Below, piece after piece: positions 5,106 through 46,421 of a DNA stretch of 46,421 nt. Origin of the DNA: a virus. Lineage: Duplodnaviria > Heunggongvirae > Uroviricota > Caudoviricetes. Both the position numbers and the translations under genes were made by a program. The stretch lies in IMG/VR virus record IMGVR_UViG_2541047773_000007; one strand, 5' to 3'. The notes under the pieces are model-generated. The model saw only the letters and a list, made by a program, of their open reading frames with translations, was not told where the DNA came from and did not search any database. Every line of letters begins with the position of its first letter. Positions within the stretch are counted from its first letter, which is position 1.

Positions 5106-7483
5106 TAGATTGACTCCCCCACCTGAGCATCAGTCAATGCCTTGTGCCATATTCTGAAATTCCTGACATGACCAAATAAATGACGTAACCCGGCTGTAGT
5201 CTGGCCTCCAATACGGATAATTGCGGTGTTCTGAATACAGGACCATGTGGTTTTTGTTTCGCTGGATATATGCCCGTTACTTACTGAGCACGTAGACTGC
5301 TCTGACTTTACACGCATCCCCATAACCATTTTTTCAAGCGATGCGTTTTCGTTTACCCGTCTGTTAGCTCCTCCAATATCGCAATAAGGAAATCCGTCGT
5401 AATCTGTTGAACGACCGAAGCCAAGAATAATAGCCGCTCCGGTTTGATGACCGCCGGTATCAAAAACACGTGGCGCTGCATTTGGCGTTTTATACCAGTT
5501 CTTATGTACCTCACAAAGAACCGTAAAAGGAAGATTATAAAGATTATTCTTAATTGGAACTGTAACTATATCGCTTGCGCGGGTCGCCGCCGTCGCTCCT
5601 GATATAATAAAAGATGATACACAAGGCCCATCTTCTACTTGTGGGGTGGCCAGATAAATATAGTCACCAGATACGGTTGCCCCGCTCTGCTTAGGAGAAT
5701 ACTGTATCTGAGAGCCTATTTTTAACTCCCCATCAATTGCCTGAATTGTTGCCTCTGCAAAAATCCATCCGGTAGCTTCGTCCTTTCTGACTCTCGCTGT
5801 AATCCTTGAGGCAGCACCGCCTGTCATATTAATTTCAAGCGTTTGTGTATCAATATACGCATCACCAAGAAAAGTTGTTGCGCTACCGTCATATTTATCA
5901 AACCGGATACGCAACCTTACCTGCAGTTCTGTTTTAAAACGACATGAGGTTGTCACGTGTTTATTATCGCCTGAGACATCAACTGACTTTGTTGCAGCAA
6001 TTGATGCCATATTAATGGCTGAGGTTTGCCCAATCAGAGAATCGTTGCAGACAAACTTTCCATAGGTAAAACCAAAATTATCCGTCCCTGTTTCGGGCAC
6101 ATCCATATTTGACGATCGCCCCCAACTGGCAGGGCTTTCCGAATTGAGCATGTAGTTTGTTCTTTGCCCCTCAATAAGCAGGCCATCACGTTCAAATCGT
6201 GGCTCGTCAATGGCAGCCTCTGTCAGCACACCAGATTTGTTAATATAGGTTGCTTTCGATGCACGTTTAAACTTAACAATCTTGTCGCCAGGCATCGTTA
6301 TTTCATCGTCACCAATAACAATTTTTTTATATGACGGCGAAAAGCCCGTAATCATATCCAGCGAATCGTTAAATGGTATCCACACATCAGGCAGCGGCTG
6401 TAAGACATATTTATACGGCTCCGCAGCCTGGCTTGCGTACTCTCTGGCTGCATCTTCGCTTGCTTTAGCTGCCGTCTGGCTTGCTGCCGATGCTTTCGCT
6501 GAGTTCGCAGCCGCTGTTTCGCTCACCTTTGCGTTGGTTTCACTGGTTTTTGCTGCTTTTTGACTGTTAGCTGATGCAGTGGCAGAAGCAGCCGCCGCGC
6601 TTGCAGAACTGGCTGCGGCACTCTCGCTTTGAGCCGCTGCATCCTGACTGCTTTTCGCCGCAGTTTCACTGGCTTTGGCATTCGTTTCGCTGGTCTTCGC
6701 TGCCGTCTGGCTGGACTTTGCGTTAGTTTCACTCGTCTTCGCAGCTTTCTGGCTGTTAGCCGTAGCAGTTGCTGATCCAGCTGCTGAAGTCGCAGAACCG
6801 GCTGCCGCGCTCTCGCTTTGGGCTGCTGCAACCTGGCTGTTTTTTGCCGCAGTTTCACTGGCTTTAGCATTCGTTTCGCTGGTCTTCGCTGCCGTCTGGC
6901 TGGACTTTGCGTTGGTTTCGCTCGTCTTTGCGGCTGTCTCGCTATTTTTCGCGTTGGTTTCTGATTTTTTAGCTGCTGTTGCGGAGTTTGCCGATGCAGT
7001 CTGCGAGGCCGCTGCCGCCTGTGCGCTGTTAGCTGCATTCGTTTCTGAGGTTTTCGCCGCGTTCTTCGATGATGCCGCTGCAGTTTCGGATTTCTTTGCC
7101 GCCGCTGCGCTCTGAGAGGCGGCTTCAGCGTTGCGTGCCGCTTCTTCCACCATTTCCTCAAAACGACGCAATGCCTCCGGCATGACATCATCTTCCGTCA
7201 TGGCACCGAGAAAATCATTCAGCGTACCTGGTCTGGAACCTTCATAGACGGTAATGGTTCCGGCATGTGAAGGCGGAAAACCTTCAACAAGCAGGATAAC
7301 GCTGTACTGGCCATACTCAACATCCATGCTGTAACGCCCGGCTTCATCCGGATTTTCAGAGGCCACCGTGTTCACCAGTACCGTGGTGCTGTTACGCTTT
7401 GCCTTCAGTTGAATAGTGCAGTTCTGTATTGGTTTTCCCGCACCATCTTTCAGCACACCTGAAATCTGTACTGCCATACTCAC
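5105..7483 (-). CDS. stf: Side tail fibre protein (Stf) with distinct C-terminal receptor-binding region
   Basis: 792 aa; N-terminus MSMAVQISGVLKDGAGKPIQNCTIQLKAKRNSTTV... is lambda Stf-like; long SETNAK/AAKTSETNAK repeat tract; C-terminal roughly 430 aa unrelated to lambda Stf. Confidence 0.85.
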   Translation of the reverse strand: MSMAVQISGVLKDGAGKPIQNCTIQLKAKRNSTTVLVNTVASENPDEAGRYSMDVEYGQYSVILLVEGFPPSHAGTITVYEGSRPGTLNDFLGAMTEDDVMPEALRRFEEMVEEAARNAEAASQSAAAAKKSETAAASSKNAAKTSETNAANSAQAAAASQTASANSATAAKKSETNAKNSETAAKTSETNAKSSQTAAKTSETNAKASETAAKNSQVAAAQSESAAAGSATSAAGSATATANSQKAAKTSETNAKSSQTAAKTSETNAKASETAAKSSQDAAAQSESAAASSASAAAASATASANSQKAAKTSETNAKVSETAAANSAKASAASQTAAKASEDAAREYASQAAEPYKYVLQPLPDVWIPFNDSLDMITGFSPSYKKIVIGDDEITMPGDKIVKFKRASKATYINKSGVLTEAAIDEPRFERDGLLIEGQRTNYMLNSESPASWGRSSNMDVPETGTDNFGFTYGKFVCNDSLIGQTSAINMASIAATKSVDVSGDNKHVTTSCRFKTELQVRLRIRFDKYDGSATTFLGDAYIDTQTLEINMTGGAASRITARVRKDEATGWIFAEATIQAIDGELKIGSQIQYSPKQSGATVSGDYIYLATPQVEDGPCVSSFIISGATAATRASDIVTVPIKNNLYNLPFTVLCEVHKNWYKTPNAAPRVFDTGGHQTGAAIILGFGRSTDYDGFPYCDIGGANRRVNENASLEKMVMGMRVKSEQSTCSVSNGHISSETKTTWSCIQNTAIIRIGGQTTAGLRHLFGHVRNFRIWHKALTDAQVGESI

Positions 7484-35057: not shown

Positions 35058-35213
35058 TTACTCCTCAGGTTCGTAAGCTGTGAAGACAGCGACCTCCGTC
35101 TGGCCGGTTCGGATTCGTACCTCGCAGAGGTCTTTCCTCGTTACCAGTGCCGTCACTATGACGGTTAAACAGATGACGATCAGGGCGATTAACATCGCCT
35201 TTTGCTGCTTCAT
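35058..35213 (-). CDS. hokD: Hok-family membrane toxin (HokD/RelF)
   Basis: 51 aa MKQQKAMLIALIVICLTVIVTALVTRKDLCEVRIRTGQTEVAVFTAYEPEE; the track ORF is this plus an in-frame upstream extension. Confidence 0.9.
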   Translation of the reverse strand: MKQQKAMLIALIVICLTVIVTALVTRKDLCEVRIRTGQTEVAVFTAYEPEE

Positions 35214-35716
35214 AGCCTGCTTCTCCTTGCCTTCCGGCACGTAAGAGGCTAACCTACATGTGTCTAGCATGAAATTGGCCTCAGATTAATGTTAAGCGTC
35301 TTGCAGGACGCGTAATGTTAACTGGGGCTTTTCTCTATCTGCCTTTGGTGTTCATGCCCGAGGCAGATAGCCTCAAGCACCCGCAGCCATTCTACTTAAC
35401 TACCTTTACCTCGCCAATATGAAATCAGTCAGAAAGGCGATCCATAAGAACAATAGCAAGACAATAAATTGCCATTACAGCCGCAATAGCCAGCGCACAC
35501 TTGAGAACCAGCACGACAACCTCCTGTATTGGACGTACACCAGTCCTGATAAATATGAGGCGGCCTCTTAAGTGATTCAATACAACTATTAGGTATAATT
35601 AGTCAGATTTTTTCTGTGGAAATGGGACATTACAACCTATCGCCACCAACAATTGAGACGCTAATCGCCCCATCTCGTAACCTTATCCAAAACGAGGCCT
35701 AAATCATGGCAATTGA

Positions 35717-35938
35717 CTAACGTTTCTGAGTAGATAATGCCCTGAAGTAAGCGTTGCTAATCGATTGATAAATCTCAATATCTTCAGAACCTGCAAGTTC
35801 GACATACTCACTCTCACATGTAGACGGTTGAGCAGTGTGTTGGACACTTCTCGTGTTCGAGTGGATTGTTCCTATACTAACTTCTGTTAATATAGGTAGT
35901 TCCAACTGGTTTCTGTCGTTTTTTTTCATATAAATCAC
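35717..35938 (-). CDS. Small hypothetical protein translationally coupled to deaminase gene
   Basis: 73-aa ORF (GTG start, or ATG three codons in) overlapping the deaminase stop; no recognised motif. Confidence 0.4.
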   Translation of the reverse strand: MIYMKKNDRNQLELPILTEVSIGTIHSNTRSVQHTAQPSTCESEYVELAGSEDIEIYQSISNAYFRALSTQKR

Positions 35939-37035
35939 TCAAGCCTCAACAAGTTAAGTTTATTACTATCAACTTCAGCAATAACTACCTGTTCTAATTT
36001 AGGAATCGCTTTGAGACTAACGCTATCCACAGGCATAGCCGCACCCTCTGTCGCTAACTCTAGCACCCCAGCTTTAGATTTTCGAGATCCAGATTCAAAA
36101 AGCTCAAGAAACCTAGTTGGAGCTACTCCATCAAATTGTATCAATTTCACTTTTTCATCAGTCTCGATTACTGATTCGGTCATCGCATCCGAATGAAGTT
36201 TAAGAGCTAAGCTTTTTCTATACGGCTCAATAAAATATACTTCAGAGATACCAGAAGCGATAATATGCCTTGCGCAGGAATGACATGGATAGGTTGTTAC
36301 AAATATTTTTCCGCCTAAAATTCTTTCTCCTGCCACACGAGATGCGCCAAGAATCGCGTGCATTTCTGCATGAACCGCTCTTGAAAACTCTATTAAATCT
36401 TTTAATCGTGAGTTTTTTATAATAGTTTGAATCGCCGCTTCTCTTTTTTTTACAGGGATTATTTTTTCCTGTACAAGGCTATCAATGACAACTTCAGCCA
36501 ATATTCTCTTTTCCGCATCATTCGAGCAATTTCTATTTTGTAATGTATAACAACGATGATCAGGATCAATAACTTTTAAGCGGATAGATTGTTTACCATA
36601 GAGACCACCACCATTACGAGGCACATCATTCCAACCGGTAGAAAGAAGTTCTCCAGATGAAGATGTTACTGCAGCACCAACTTGTCTTGATAGACATGCA
36701 GAATTACGAGCCGCTGAGGTGGCTGCATACATTGCATTTTCCTCTTCAGTCGGTGATATAACTGAACTCCTAAAAATTAGCTTAAAGAAACGTTCCAGTT
36801 TAGATAGAATTTGGCCTTTAGCATCGGCATTTCCTGGCTCTGCCAACCCACTGTCAACCCGCAAAAAGTAATCACACTTCGGGAAAGTGTCTCTAACTGA
36901 TTGCCCATGATCGAACTCTTCACCAGAATCAGTATTGATTAGTTCAGCAATATCTTCAACGCTTAGTCTATTAATTTTTGAAAGATTTTCACGCCTTGCC
37001 TCTAAAGGGGAAAATACACCTATAGAGAAAATCAT
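35935..37035 (-). CDS. Cytidine/dCMP-deaminase-family protein (CDA-fold zinc deaminase); candidate nucleotide-depleting defence/toxin effector
   Basis: HAEMHAI then 25 aa then PCHSCARHI is the canonical H-A-E / P-C-x-x-C zinc-binding signature; first ATG at 37035; track ORF (TTG start at 37206) has a low-complexity N-terminal extension overlapping the upstream ORF. Confidence 0.8.
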   Translation of the reverse strand: MIFSIGVFSPLEARRENLSKINRLSVEDIAELINTDSGEEFDHGQSVRDTFPKCDYFLRVDSGLAEPGNADAKGQILSKLERFFKLIFRSSVISPTEEENAMYAATSAARNSACLSRQVGAAVTSSSGELLSTGWNDVPRNGGGLYGKQSIRLKVIDPDHRCYTLQNRNCSNDAEKRILAEVVIDSLVQEKIIPVKKREAAIQTIIKNSRLKDLIEFSRAVHAEMHAILGASRVAGERILGGKIFVTTYPCHSCARHIIASGISEVYFIEPYRKSLALKLHSDAMTESVIETDEKVKLIQFDGVAPTRFLELFESGSRKSKAGVLELATEGAAMPVDSVSLKAIPKLEQVVIAEVDSNKLNLLRLE

Positions 37036-37573
37036 TTTTCCATAGATTGATTTCAACAATCTCAAGCTCAGAAGAGTTTTTAACTGAGTCAATAATATGA
37101 CAAATTTTTTGATTTTTAATCTTACTCGCTTCCCCTTTGCTGGATTCATTAACAATATCATCAAATTCACCAAAGTTTTTTTTACGCTCGGCGCTAATTT
37201 TAGCAATAGCTAATTTTGCAAGAATATCACTACCATAAATTTCACGAAGTTTATCACCCACAGTTATAAGTGACTTGAATTTCTTTAGATTAGTGCTTTC
37301 ATCAATATTAATTGATGTATATTTTGAATTAATCCGGATTAGATCACTCAAGCGTATGTCGTATGTTTTATAGCCATATTTTTTAAGCGAGAATGATATC
37401 TGCTCAGCAGTCTCATGTAGCGGTGAACCAATTGGCCCACAAAGTGCGATTATAATCTCTGGAGTAACACTGTCTTTTATTTCTTGAGTTGCATTAATTG
37501 TTGACAGCTCGGCAACATCATCATTCCCAACAAGTTGAAACTCTTGACTTTTATCTAAGGCTGTGCCTTGCAT
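36989..37573 (-). CDS. N-terminal NTPase/kinase-like ORF overlapping the deaminase ORF (separate protein or frameshifted N-terminal domain)
   Basis: 194-aa ORF with degenerate P-loop-like IIIALCGPIGSPLHE; 3' end overlaps the deaminase frame. Confidence 0.55.
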   Translation of the reverse strand: MQGTALDKSQEFQLVGNDDVAELSTINATQEIKDSVTPEIIIALCGPIGSPLHETAEQISFSLKKYGYKTYDIRLSDLIRINSKYTSINIDESTNLKKFKSLITVGDKLREIYGSDILAKLAIAKISAERKKNFGEFDDIVNESSKGEASKIKNQKICHIIDSVKNSSELEIVEINLWKNDFLYRCIFPFRGKA

Positions 37574-37864
37574 GCCCTTATCCTAATTAATAGTATTTTT
37601 CCCTCTTTATAGCTAATTAAGATAAATGTTGCAAAGTAATATTGCACATGAAACTTGAGTTAGTAATCCTTTTGACTAGATGGTTTGACCTGCGCCCTAT
37701 AGATAAACACACTACGCTGTTAGCAACGTTCGCTTCTGGCACAAAGCAGGCACCACACTAGTTCTTCCCTGTACCATAAAAATGTCAATTCACATATGAA
37801 CAAATGCTATTTAATCTAAAAATGTCTATAAATACCGTGTAATTCACTGATAAAATGCCAATAT

Positions 37865-38242
37865 TCACTGAATAACTTCACTCCTCCGGTACTCGCGACA
37901 GATTATGTTTAGGTGACTGTCGTAGCGACGTATTTCTCCGTCAGGTAATGACCAGATAAGGTCCGGATCAACCACAGCGGGTTTCTTCACCTTCGCCCTA
38001 GAGAGTTTTTTGCGGGCATTTTGCCAGTCCTTTCGTGCCTGTTGAGACGGGAATAACGCGTAGCCGGAGTTGTATACATAACAACTGGCAACCAGCTCTC
38101 TGGCAAGAATGCTCATCAGATATCTTGTCGCACCTGTCTTGGCTTCCAGTTGCCGTAACGTCTCACGACCGCTCTGGCGCACGAGTTCCACCACCTGCCC
38201 TTTAATTTTTTCCCGCTCTTCTTGTGTAAAAACTTTTGCCAC
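37865..38242 (-). CDS. Hypothetical protein downstream of replication gene
   Basis: 125-aa basic ORF; function unknown. Confidence 0.4.
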   Translation of the reverse strand: MAKVFTQEEREKIKGQVVELVRQSGRETLRQLEAKTGATRYLMSILARELVASCYVYNSGYALFPSQQARKDWQNARKKLSRAKVKKPAVVDPDLIWSLPDGEIRRYDSHLNIICREYRRSEVIQ

Positions 38243-45125: not shown

Positions 45126-46421
45126 ATGAGAGAAGTTGAAATGAAATATCCGACAGGCGTGGAAAACCATGGAGGGAAATTACGTATCTGGTTTGTTTAT
45201 AAAGGCGTAAGAGTCAGGGAAAATCTGGGGGTTCCTGACACAGCAAAAAACAGGCGCGTTGCAGGTGAACTACGCTCCTCTGTTTGTTACGCAATAAAAA
45301 CTGGTGTTTTCGACTATGCAAAACAGTTTCCCTCCTCACGCAATCTGGAAAAATTTGGTGAGGCCCGACAAGATTTAACCATAAAAGAACTGGCTGAAAA
45401 ATTTCTGGCACTGAAAGAAACTGAAGTCGCCAAAACATCACTCAACACATACCGTGCCGTCATCAAAAATATCCTGAGCATAATCGGTGAAAAAAATCTT
45501 GCCTCATCGATTAATAAAGAAAAATTACTGGAGGTTCGTAAAGAGCTACTGACTGGATACCAGATCCCCAAAAGTAACTATATTGTTACACAACCAGGGA
45601 GATCGGCTGTAACTGTAAATAATTACATGACAAATCTTAACGCCGTGTTCCAGTTTGGTGTTGATAACGGTTACCTGGCAGATAATCCGTTTAAGGGGAT
45701 CTCGCCATTAAAGGAATCAAGAACCATTCCGGATCCTCTTTCGCGGGAGGAATTTATCCGTCTTATCGATGCGTGCAGAAATCAGCAAGCAAAAAATTTA
45801 TGGTGTGTTTCTGTTTATACTGGCGTTCGCCCTGGTGAGCTGTGTGCACTTGGATGGGAGGACATAGATCTGAAAAATGGAACAATGATGATCAGGAGAA
45901 ATTTAGCAAAAGACCGTTTCACGGTACCAAAAACACAGGCGGGAACCAATCGGGTCATTCATCTTATTAAGCCAGCAATCGACGCTCTCCGGAGTCAGAT
46001 GACATTAACGAGACTGAGCAAAGAGCATATCATTGATGTTCACCTCAGAGAGTATGGCAGAACAGAAAAACAAAAATGCACCTTTGTTTTTCAACCTGAA
46101 GTGTCAGCGAGAGTAAAAAATTATGGTGACCATTTTACCGTTGACTCAATAAGGCAGATGTGGGACGCAGCGATAAAACGTGCCGGACTCCGCCATCGAA
46201 AATCATATCAGTCGAGACATACTTATGCCTGCTGGTCGCTGACAGCTGGTGCTAACCCGGCATTTATAGCAAACCAGATGGGCCATGCAGATGCGCAAAT
46301 GGTATTTCAGGTATACGGAAAATGGATGTCTGAAAACAATAATGCACAGGTAGCTTTGTTAAATACACAGTTAAGCGAGTTTGCCCCAACCATGCCCCAT
46401 AACGAAGCAATGAAAAATTAA
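45126..46421 (+). CDS. int: Tyrosine integrase
   Basis: 431 aa with C-terminal catalytic region (...RHTYACWSL...HADAQMVFQVYGKW...); ends at the window edge. Confidence 0.9.
   Translation: MREVEMKYPTGVENHGGKLRIWFVYKGVRVRENLGVPDTAKNRRVAGELRSSVCYAIKTGVFDYAKQFPSSRNLEKFGEARQDLTIKELAEKFLALKETEVAKTSLNTYRAVIKNILSIIGEKNLASSINKEKLLEVRKELLTGYQIPKSNYIVTQPGRSAVTVNNYMTNLNAVFQFGVDNGYLADNPFKGISPLKESRTIPDPLSREEFIRLIDACRNQQAKNLWCVSVYTGVRPGELCALGWEDIDLKNGTMMIRRNLAKDRFTVPKTQAGTNRVIHLIKPAIDALRSQMTLTRLSKEHIIDVHLREYGRTEKQKCTFVFQPEVSARVKNYGDHFTVDSIRQMWDAAIKRAGLRHRKSYQSRHTYACWSLTAGANPAFIANQMGHADAQMVFQVYGKWMSENNNAQVALLNTQLSEFAPTMPHNEAMKN

Follow-up and report, generated by a model that had tools for sequence, protein, structure and literature searches.

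Two overlapping reading frames in an Escherichia coli prophage are very probably one anti-phage dCTP deaminase gene broken by a single-base insertion

On the minus strand of the prophage DNA analyzed here (46,421 nt in full, hereafter the window), a reading frame for an NTPase-like protein runs into an overlapping frame for a deaminase. This arrangement raises the question of whether the locus holds two genes, one gene whose frames are joined by recoding or phase variation, or one gene that has been broken. The frames in question are:

37573..36989, minus strand: N-terminal open reading frame (ORF), 194 aa (ORF listing and sequence)
37206..35935, minus strand: deaminase ORF read from a TTG, 423 aa (ORF listing)
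37035..35935, minus strand: deaminase ORF read from its first ATG, 366 aa (ORF listing)

A previous sequence-only reading had put the overlap at 47–218 nt, and the ORF listing and the sequence agree, the overlap being 47 nt when measured from the ATG and 218 nt when measured from the TTG. As places where the frame might switch, that reading had singled out an A8 run and GGAAAAATGA near 37035. The A8 run is present, although at exactly 37176–37183 rather than at about 37174–37181, and GGAAAAATGA was correctly placed and contains the ATG at 37035.

Alignment with intact alleles allowed us to locate the frame switch at a different position:

35935..37573, minus strand: disrupted gene, an anti-phage dCTP deaminase (AvcD-like), 1639 nt (intact allele, 1638 nt)
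37060, minus strand: lesion, an inserted A (T on the plus strand) after codon 171, from alignment with L001/L003 and L096–L105

Deleting base 37060 yields a 545-aa protein that is 100% identical to WP_021516101.1 (P0001), which RefSeq names “anti-phage dCTP deaminase”. Besides this base, the window differs from most intact alleles by two synonymous SNPs only, at 36931 and 36160. Of the 194 residues of the N-terminal ORF, the first 171 are native and the last 23, up to the stop, are read out of frame. The minus-strand context of the lesion, GAGCTTGAG[A]TTGTTG, is neither a homopolymer nor a simple repeat, so the shift does not lie at either of the sites proposed earlier; the A8 runs in the window are unchanged in length relative to the intact alleles. 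The comparison with full-length homologues that had been suggested for finding the switch thus places it at 37060. In our assessment, the two ORFs are very probably a single prophage-borne anti-phage dCTP deaminase gene, inactivated by a single-base insertion at 37060. A frameshift-inactivated single gene was among the options already raised, and it is supported by the repair, by collinear profile matches and by single-frame homologues.

The deaminase-frame overlap upstream of 37060 is a chance open stretch. For the part from 37206 to 37060, codon shuffling gave P = 0.06 for an open run this long, and the +1 frame of the gene contains further stop-free runs of 53, 38, and 36 codons. We dropped the extension to TTG 37206 as meaningful coding sequence on the basis of this shuffle.

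Both ORFs match the same defence-gene profiles and are collinear across the junction. In the PADLOC dCTPase model PDLC02373, the N-terminal ORF corresponds to model positions 137–255 and the C-terminal ORF to 235–549. In the NCBIfam profile NF041025 (“anti-phage dCTP deaminase”, cut-off 400 bits), they correspond to positions 1–122 (80 bits) and 132–434 (354 bits), respectively. Each window fragment misses the family cut-off, which the repaired protein passes at 463 bits. A homologue scan with a single genome for each species yielded 80 loci at 35–81% identity, and 76 of these carry both domains in a single continuous frame; three of the remaining four are cut by contig ends and one has its own frameshift. 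Most of the 120 nearest proteins in the database are single chains of 544–560 aa, and the two-ORF form occurs only as nucleotide-identical copies of one allele. The one-polypeptide architecture of kinase-like and deaminase domains is therefore broken in the window allele and present in the ancestral allele and in those 76 homologues. The length of roughly 500–570 aa given for relatives in the sequence-only reading is right, with homologues of 505–560 aa and a repaired gene product of 545 aa. An independent frameshift near residue 373 was observed in Tahibacter sp. UC22_41 (L072, 3001–4561, 55% identity).

The split allele was compared with copies in public assemblies. A megablast search of 5,426 complete E. 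coli genomes identified seven copies, four identical to the window and three one base shorter. The four identical copies are annotated as two CDS, WP_001531704.1 (“hypothetical protein”) and WP_001531703.1 (“deaminase”), for the N and C fragments, respectively, with no pseudogene flag. The three shorter copies each carry a single 545-aa CDS, “anti-phage dCTP deaminase” (WP_021516101.1), and the window differs from them by the extra A at 37060 and the synonymous SNPs at 36931 and 36160. Across NCBI, ENA, and Logan assemblies, the split products of 194 and 366 aa are called on 283 and 293 contigs, respectively, and the split allele is found in 582 index blocks of public assemblies; the intact protein is found on 720 contigs and in 1543 blocks. 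Among the loci fetched, one intact copy, L099 (GCA_025491235.1), carries both window SNPs and differs from the window by three mismatches and one gap over 7.6 kb. Among 17 sequences examined, the insertion is confined to the haplotype that has T at both 36931 and 36160. The same allele in hundreds of assemblies, together with an intact copy on the same haplotype, points to one recent, real insertion. On the evidence of these alignments, the insertion arose on an L099-type haplotype within the same prophage and then spread clonally; such descent explains the abundance of the split allele, since its loci are 100% identical.

Other variation was observed in and around the gene. The entry P0099 (E. 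coli) combines the window allele with a changed A8 run at 37176–37183, which re-joins the frames and leaves 38 wrong residues, and it has a further indel at the A8 run 36444–36451; P0138 (Klebsiella quasipneumoniae) and P0096 show 1-nt shifts at the latter run. These A8 length variants do not occur in this window and probably reflect homopolymer errors of long-read sequencing, or else independent lesions. A split-allele isolate, L006 (GCA_964052135.1), carries a 1.33-kb IS3-family element (1419–2748, with HTH_Tnp_1 and rve ORFs) at about window position 37820–37825, between the DUF977 gene and the mobile block described below and some 247 nt 5′ of the deaminase start. The DUF977 gene (window 37865–38242) is intact in the window and in L099, and frameshifted in several genomes with an intact deaminase, including all three complete ones:

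L001, 2472–2836: frameshifted DUF977 gene
L003, 2472–2836: frameshifted DUF977 gene
L098/L103/L105, 2345–2709: frameshifted DUF977 gene

The break divides the protein into two parts of unequal content:

36989..37573, minus strand: N fragment, with P-loop C45-G-P-I-G-S50 and Walker-B-like CHIID at residues 158–162
35935..37035, minus strand: C fragment, 366 aa from internal Met180, with kinase-like strands 4–5 and the whole deaminase domain

The C-terminal ORF contains a CMP/dCMP zinc deaminase domain (PF00383, E = 1e-15) with the motifs H401-A-E403 and P-C430-H-S-C433, and the HAE and PCxxC motifs fall within the stretch aligned to T4 dCMP deaminase (1vq2). H401, E403, C430, and C433 are invariant in alignment A1, as is the P-loop C45-G46-P47-x-G49-S50-P51, which is carried by the N fragment. 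A search of solved structures matched the deaminase core alone (e.g., T4 dCMP deaminase) and returned no full-length relative. The AlphaFold model of the intact protein has a mean pLDDT of 57 and a low-confidence C-terminal half; residues 40–210 reach block means of 61–87. In this model, strand 1 (residues 40–45) is followed by the P-loop, strand 2 spans residues 69–74, and strand 3 (157–164) includes CHIID; after strand 3 come a helix (167–180), strand 4 (181–187), and strand 5 (235–238). Using Foldseek against the PDB, we identified similarity to adenylate-kinase-like P-loop kinases (3lw7, 3h0k), with TM scores of 0.71–0.75 normalized to the target over about 220 columns. In the model, strands 3 and 4 end up on opposite sides of the break after residue 171, which interrupts the kinase-like core. 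Directly past the break, L172, L173, Y177, and G178 are invariant among 35 aligned homologues (58–99% identical).

Published point mutations indicate what such a break may mean for function. In the E. coli AW1.7 enzyme, G29A/C30A in the kinase P-loop and C370A/C401A in the deaminase domain abolish defence and dCTP depletion (10.1101/2021.04.26.441389), and V. cholerae DcdV/AvcD is inactivated by S52K and by E384A (10.1101/2021.03.31.437871). These mutations show the kinase-like domain to be required for defence, which makes an inactive gene the most likely case. With the break inside the kinase-like fold, a complete kinase-like domain is left in neither fragment, and the locus is most likely a recent pseudogene. 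Loss of the defence function is thus the most likely outcome, given the break position and by analogy with the published mutants. Following the mechanism in the literature, the P-loop kinase-like domain and the C-terminal zinc deaminase domain of the intact 545-aa enzyme would work together, and upon phage infection dCTP/dCMP would be deaminated and phage DNA synthesis starved. On the split allele, ribosomes starting at 37573 would translate 171 native codons and then 23 wrong codons before stopping at 36989; the rest of the protein could come solely from weak internal starts at ATG 37035 or TTG 37059/37056. Clonal inheritance has carried the allele through a widespread E. coli lineage, and RefSeq mis-annotates it as two genes. 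Hardly any secondary decay is seen in the split allele: both fragment ORFs and the small gene downstream are intact. Such near-absence of decay fits a very recent event and would also fit retained function.

The split might be tolerated, with the N fragment (residues 1–171 plus the tail) and the C fragment (172/180–545) reassembling, or with a free C fragment that is newly active or deregulated. Both ORFs are still open, and start codons (TTG 37059/37056 and ATG 37035) lie directly past the lesion. A restart at TTG 37059 would keep every native residue (1–171 and 172–545), and other gene callers give 373–374-aa products from TTG, at residue 172 or 173, in close relatives. The allele is also common, at the 582 index blocks noted above, although clonal descent of 100% identical loci accounts for this. 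Against a tolerated split, the C-fragment starts lie inside the translated N ORF behind a weak Shine-Dalgarno-like sequence (TGGAAAA before the ATG), the break falls within the beta-sheet core of the kinase-like domain, characterized enzymes need both domains, and the organization is absent from diverged homologues. Weak start signals and a cut within the beta-sheet core make fragment complementation improbable, with a slim chance at best. We see a similarly slim chance for a split or re-wired dCTP deaminase that acts with the intact 70-aa downstream protein; if true, a functional split would explain why an undecayed allele persists in hundreds of isolates. A full-length product could alternatively come from recoding (programmed +1 frameshifting or transcriptional slippage), or the site could be phase-variable. 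The region is rich in A/T and contains A8 runs at 37176–37183 and 36444–36451, and length differences at these runs are seen in the database entries P0099, P0138, and P0096. However, a +1 shift is needed, for which a canonical −1 slippery site is no help, and GAG-A-TTG offers no repeat, re-pairing option, or suitable shift codon. A later shift within the 37060–36989 overlap would replace conserved residues 172–188, strand 4 included. If slippage occurred at the upstream A8 run, residues 133–171 would be replaced, the Walker-B strand 3 among them, as in P0099. No diverged homologue conserves the arrangement, and phase variation is further contradicted by the absence of a repeat at the insertion site and by the restriction of the insertion, among the 17 sequences, to the T-36931/T-36160 haplotype. 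We therefore judge recoding or phase variation very improbable.

Two further readings have a practically negligible probability. Single-base indels are the commonest assembly error and some related entries (P0099) resemble homopolymer errors, so the extra base could be an error of sequencing or assembly confined to this record. The site is no homopolymer, however, and the same two proteins are encoded on 283 and 293 contigs and in four complete hybrid-type genomes; the homopolymer sequencing indel considered in the sequence-only reading is refuted by this identical allele in hundreds of independent assemblies. The chance that the locus is a genuine operon of an NTPase-like protein and a separate deaminase is likewise minute. 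RefSeq does give two CDS with no pseudogene flag, but the two-ORF form consists of identical copies of one allele, and neither the last 23 residues of the N ORF nor the deaminase frame upstream of 37060 shows homology. The sequence-only reading had named the two-ORF organization in other genomes as the sign of a bona fide operon; diverged homologues down to 35% identity have one ORF instead, which refutes a two-gene arrangement. A single gene broken by the insertion at 37060 remains our preferred explanation.

The window (1–46421) corresponds to exactly one complete Qin-like lambdoid prophage of 46.4 kb, inserted in ydfJ, and is 99.97% identical to NZ_OZ040973.1 2419856–2466276. Its ends and one landmark near the deaminase are:

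45141–46421: integrase, at one prophage end
1–1284: truncated ydfJ, at the other prophage end
35058–35382: hokD/sok, with sok RNA at 35208–35382 (Rfam, 117 bits)

The deaminase is flanked by replication genes (O-like, DUF977) on one side and by hokD/sok-rem-ydfU-Q on the other. A 2.06-kb block (37742..35681), comprising about 170 nt of upstream sequence, the deaminase gene, and the small gene, recurs at about 96–97% nucleotide identity in unrelated contexts, with identity starting at 37742/37729. These contexts include differently organized prophages (P0072, named in Raoultella; L088–L091) and chromosomal neighbourhoods without recognizable phage genes (P0029, ‘Enterobacterales’; L092–L095). 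A third context, the one match of this cassette in the plasmid collection, is a 708-kb replicon of Pantoea dispersa; the phage collection gave no megablast match. Its recurrence in several settings marks the block as a mobile defence cassette. Elsewhere in the prophage, the tail-fibre gene (window 6527–6946) contains an internal tandem repeat, seen as two overlapping 231-nt stretches offset by 189 nt and 84% identical.

Directly 5′ of the gene lies the following region:

37574..37742, minus strand: upstream non-coding part of the mobile cassette, where the promoter is presumed to lie

An Rfam search for an AvcI-like RNA in 37574–37864, at E <= 1, matched only sok near hokD. The RNA fold of the upstream 172 nt has a z-score of −0.22, no better than shuffles, and neither a Pantoea/Pluralibacter alignment nor an all-against-all blastn of 19 upstream regions revealed a shared upstream block. 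AvcI homologues are reported to lack sequence similarity, so an RNA of this kind may have escaped these searches. Scans for promoters (7 matches versus 7.7 in shuffles) and terminators (5 matches versus 1.8, sd 1.5, in shuffles) gave results not clearly above expectation, and we left these out of the evidence.

Immediately 3′ of the deaminase we identified a conserved small gene:

35717..35929, minus strand: unannotated 70-aa gene, ATG 6 nt past the deaminase stop, intact in the window and within the cassette
L008, 4643–4858: copy of the small gene
L011, 4595–4810: copy of the small gene
L022, 4601–4813: copy of the small gene
L106, 3001–3219: copy of the small gene
L108, 3001–3213: copy of the small gene

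Homologous ORFs of 63–75 aa start between 37 nt before and 8 nt after the deaminase stop, and are present in all fetched loci whose deaminase is at least 56% identical, as well as in one at 49%. Conserved residues are retained through synonymous codon changes, and codon entropy is 1.09 bits at position 3 compared with 0.23 and 0.0 at positions 1 and 2. Such third-position-biased variation indicates selection on the small protein. A profile search collected 89 clusters, mainly of 63–75 aa, with no Pfam domain or informative name, and two distant members also lie directly 3′ of deaminase genes, of 555–557 aa. In the model of the small protein, the N-terminal half is unstructured, and a C-terminal helix (residues 48–67) is predicted with confidence. 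An invariant QLEL, usually followed by P-[IV]-L, occurs in the N-terminal part, and the helix bears the motif D..IY..IS.NYF. The N-terminal QLELP[IV]L resembles the beta-clamp-binding hexapeptide of Hda, QLSLPL (PMC3836487), and constitutes a candidate motif that we offer as a lead only. In the literature and family libraries searched, a small partner protein of dCTP deaminases is not described. The gene may encode an undescribed partner, or missing component, of this dCTP-deaminase clade, and as a by-product of the analysis it is of more interest than the frameshift itself.

The frameshift nevertheless has consequences for annotation and for the host. RefSeq treats as two ordinary genes what is a disrupted copy, and because neither fragment reaches the family cut-off, censuses of defence systems may miss or mis-score the allele. 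A prophage-borne nucleotide-depletion defence has probably been lost in a widespread E. coli lineage, which could alter its susceptibility to phages.

Compared with known systems, the gene is closest to the characterized anti-phage dCTP deaminases of the Tal et al. family: once repaired, it passes NF041025 (463 versus 400 bits) and matches PDLC02373, and it likewise has a kinase-like domain at the N-terminus and a zinc deaminase domain at the C-terminus, and lies in a mobile element. The window copy differs in being split by a frameshift, with both fragments below the cut-off. The E. coli AW1.7 enzyme of 576 aa differs at its N-terminus (MAEQKF...GRTGSGCTT, in a by-eye translation of the supplement DNA) and looks like a member of another clade. 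AvcD/DcdV of the AvcID type III toxin-antitoxin system (Hsueh et al., 10.1101/2021.03.31.437871; PMC10511110) follows the same plan of P-loop kinase and dCMP deaminase in about 530–545 aa. Matched by residue order, its P-loop serine S52/S49 corresponds to S50 here, and its deaminase residues H382/E384/C411/C414 to H401/E403/C430/C433. AvcD is restrained by the sRNA AvcI, whose gene lies directly 5′ and has the same orientation, whereas the window clade carries the conserved gene for a protein of about 70 aa immediately 3′, and the searches above revealed no AvcI-like RNA. Genes with programmed ribosomal frameshifts (prfB/dnaX type) keep their shift organization across diverged homologues, unlike this locus, and phase-variable contingency genes have a simple repeat or homopolymer at the switch site, which GAG[A]TTG lacks. 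With ordinary frameshift pseudogenes of prophage defence genes, in contrast, the window gene shares the single-base indel, the premature stop, clonal inheritance, and annotation as two CDS, and we find no material difference. The frameshift in itself adds nothing new about biology, and the locus is most likely an ordinary pseudogene of this kind, derived from a known defence gene.
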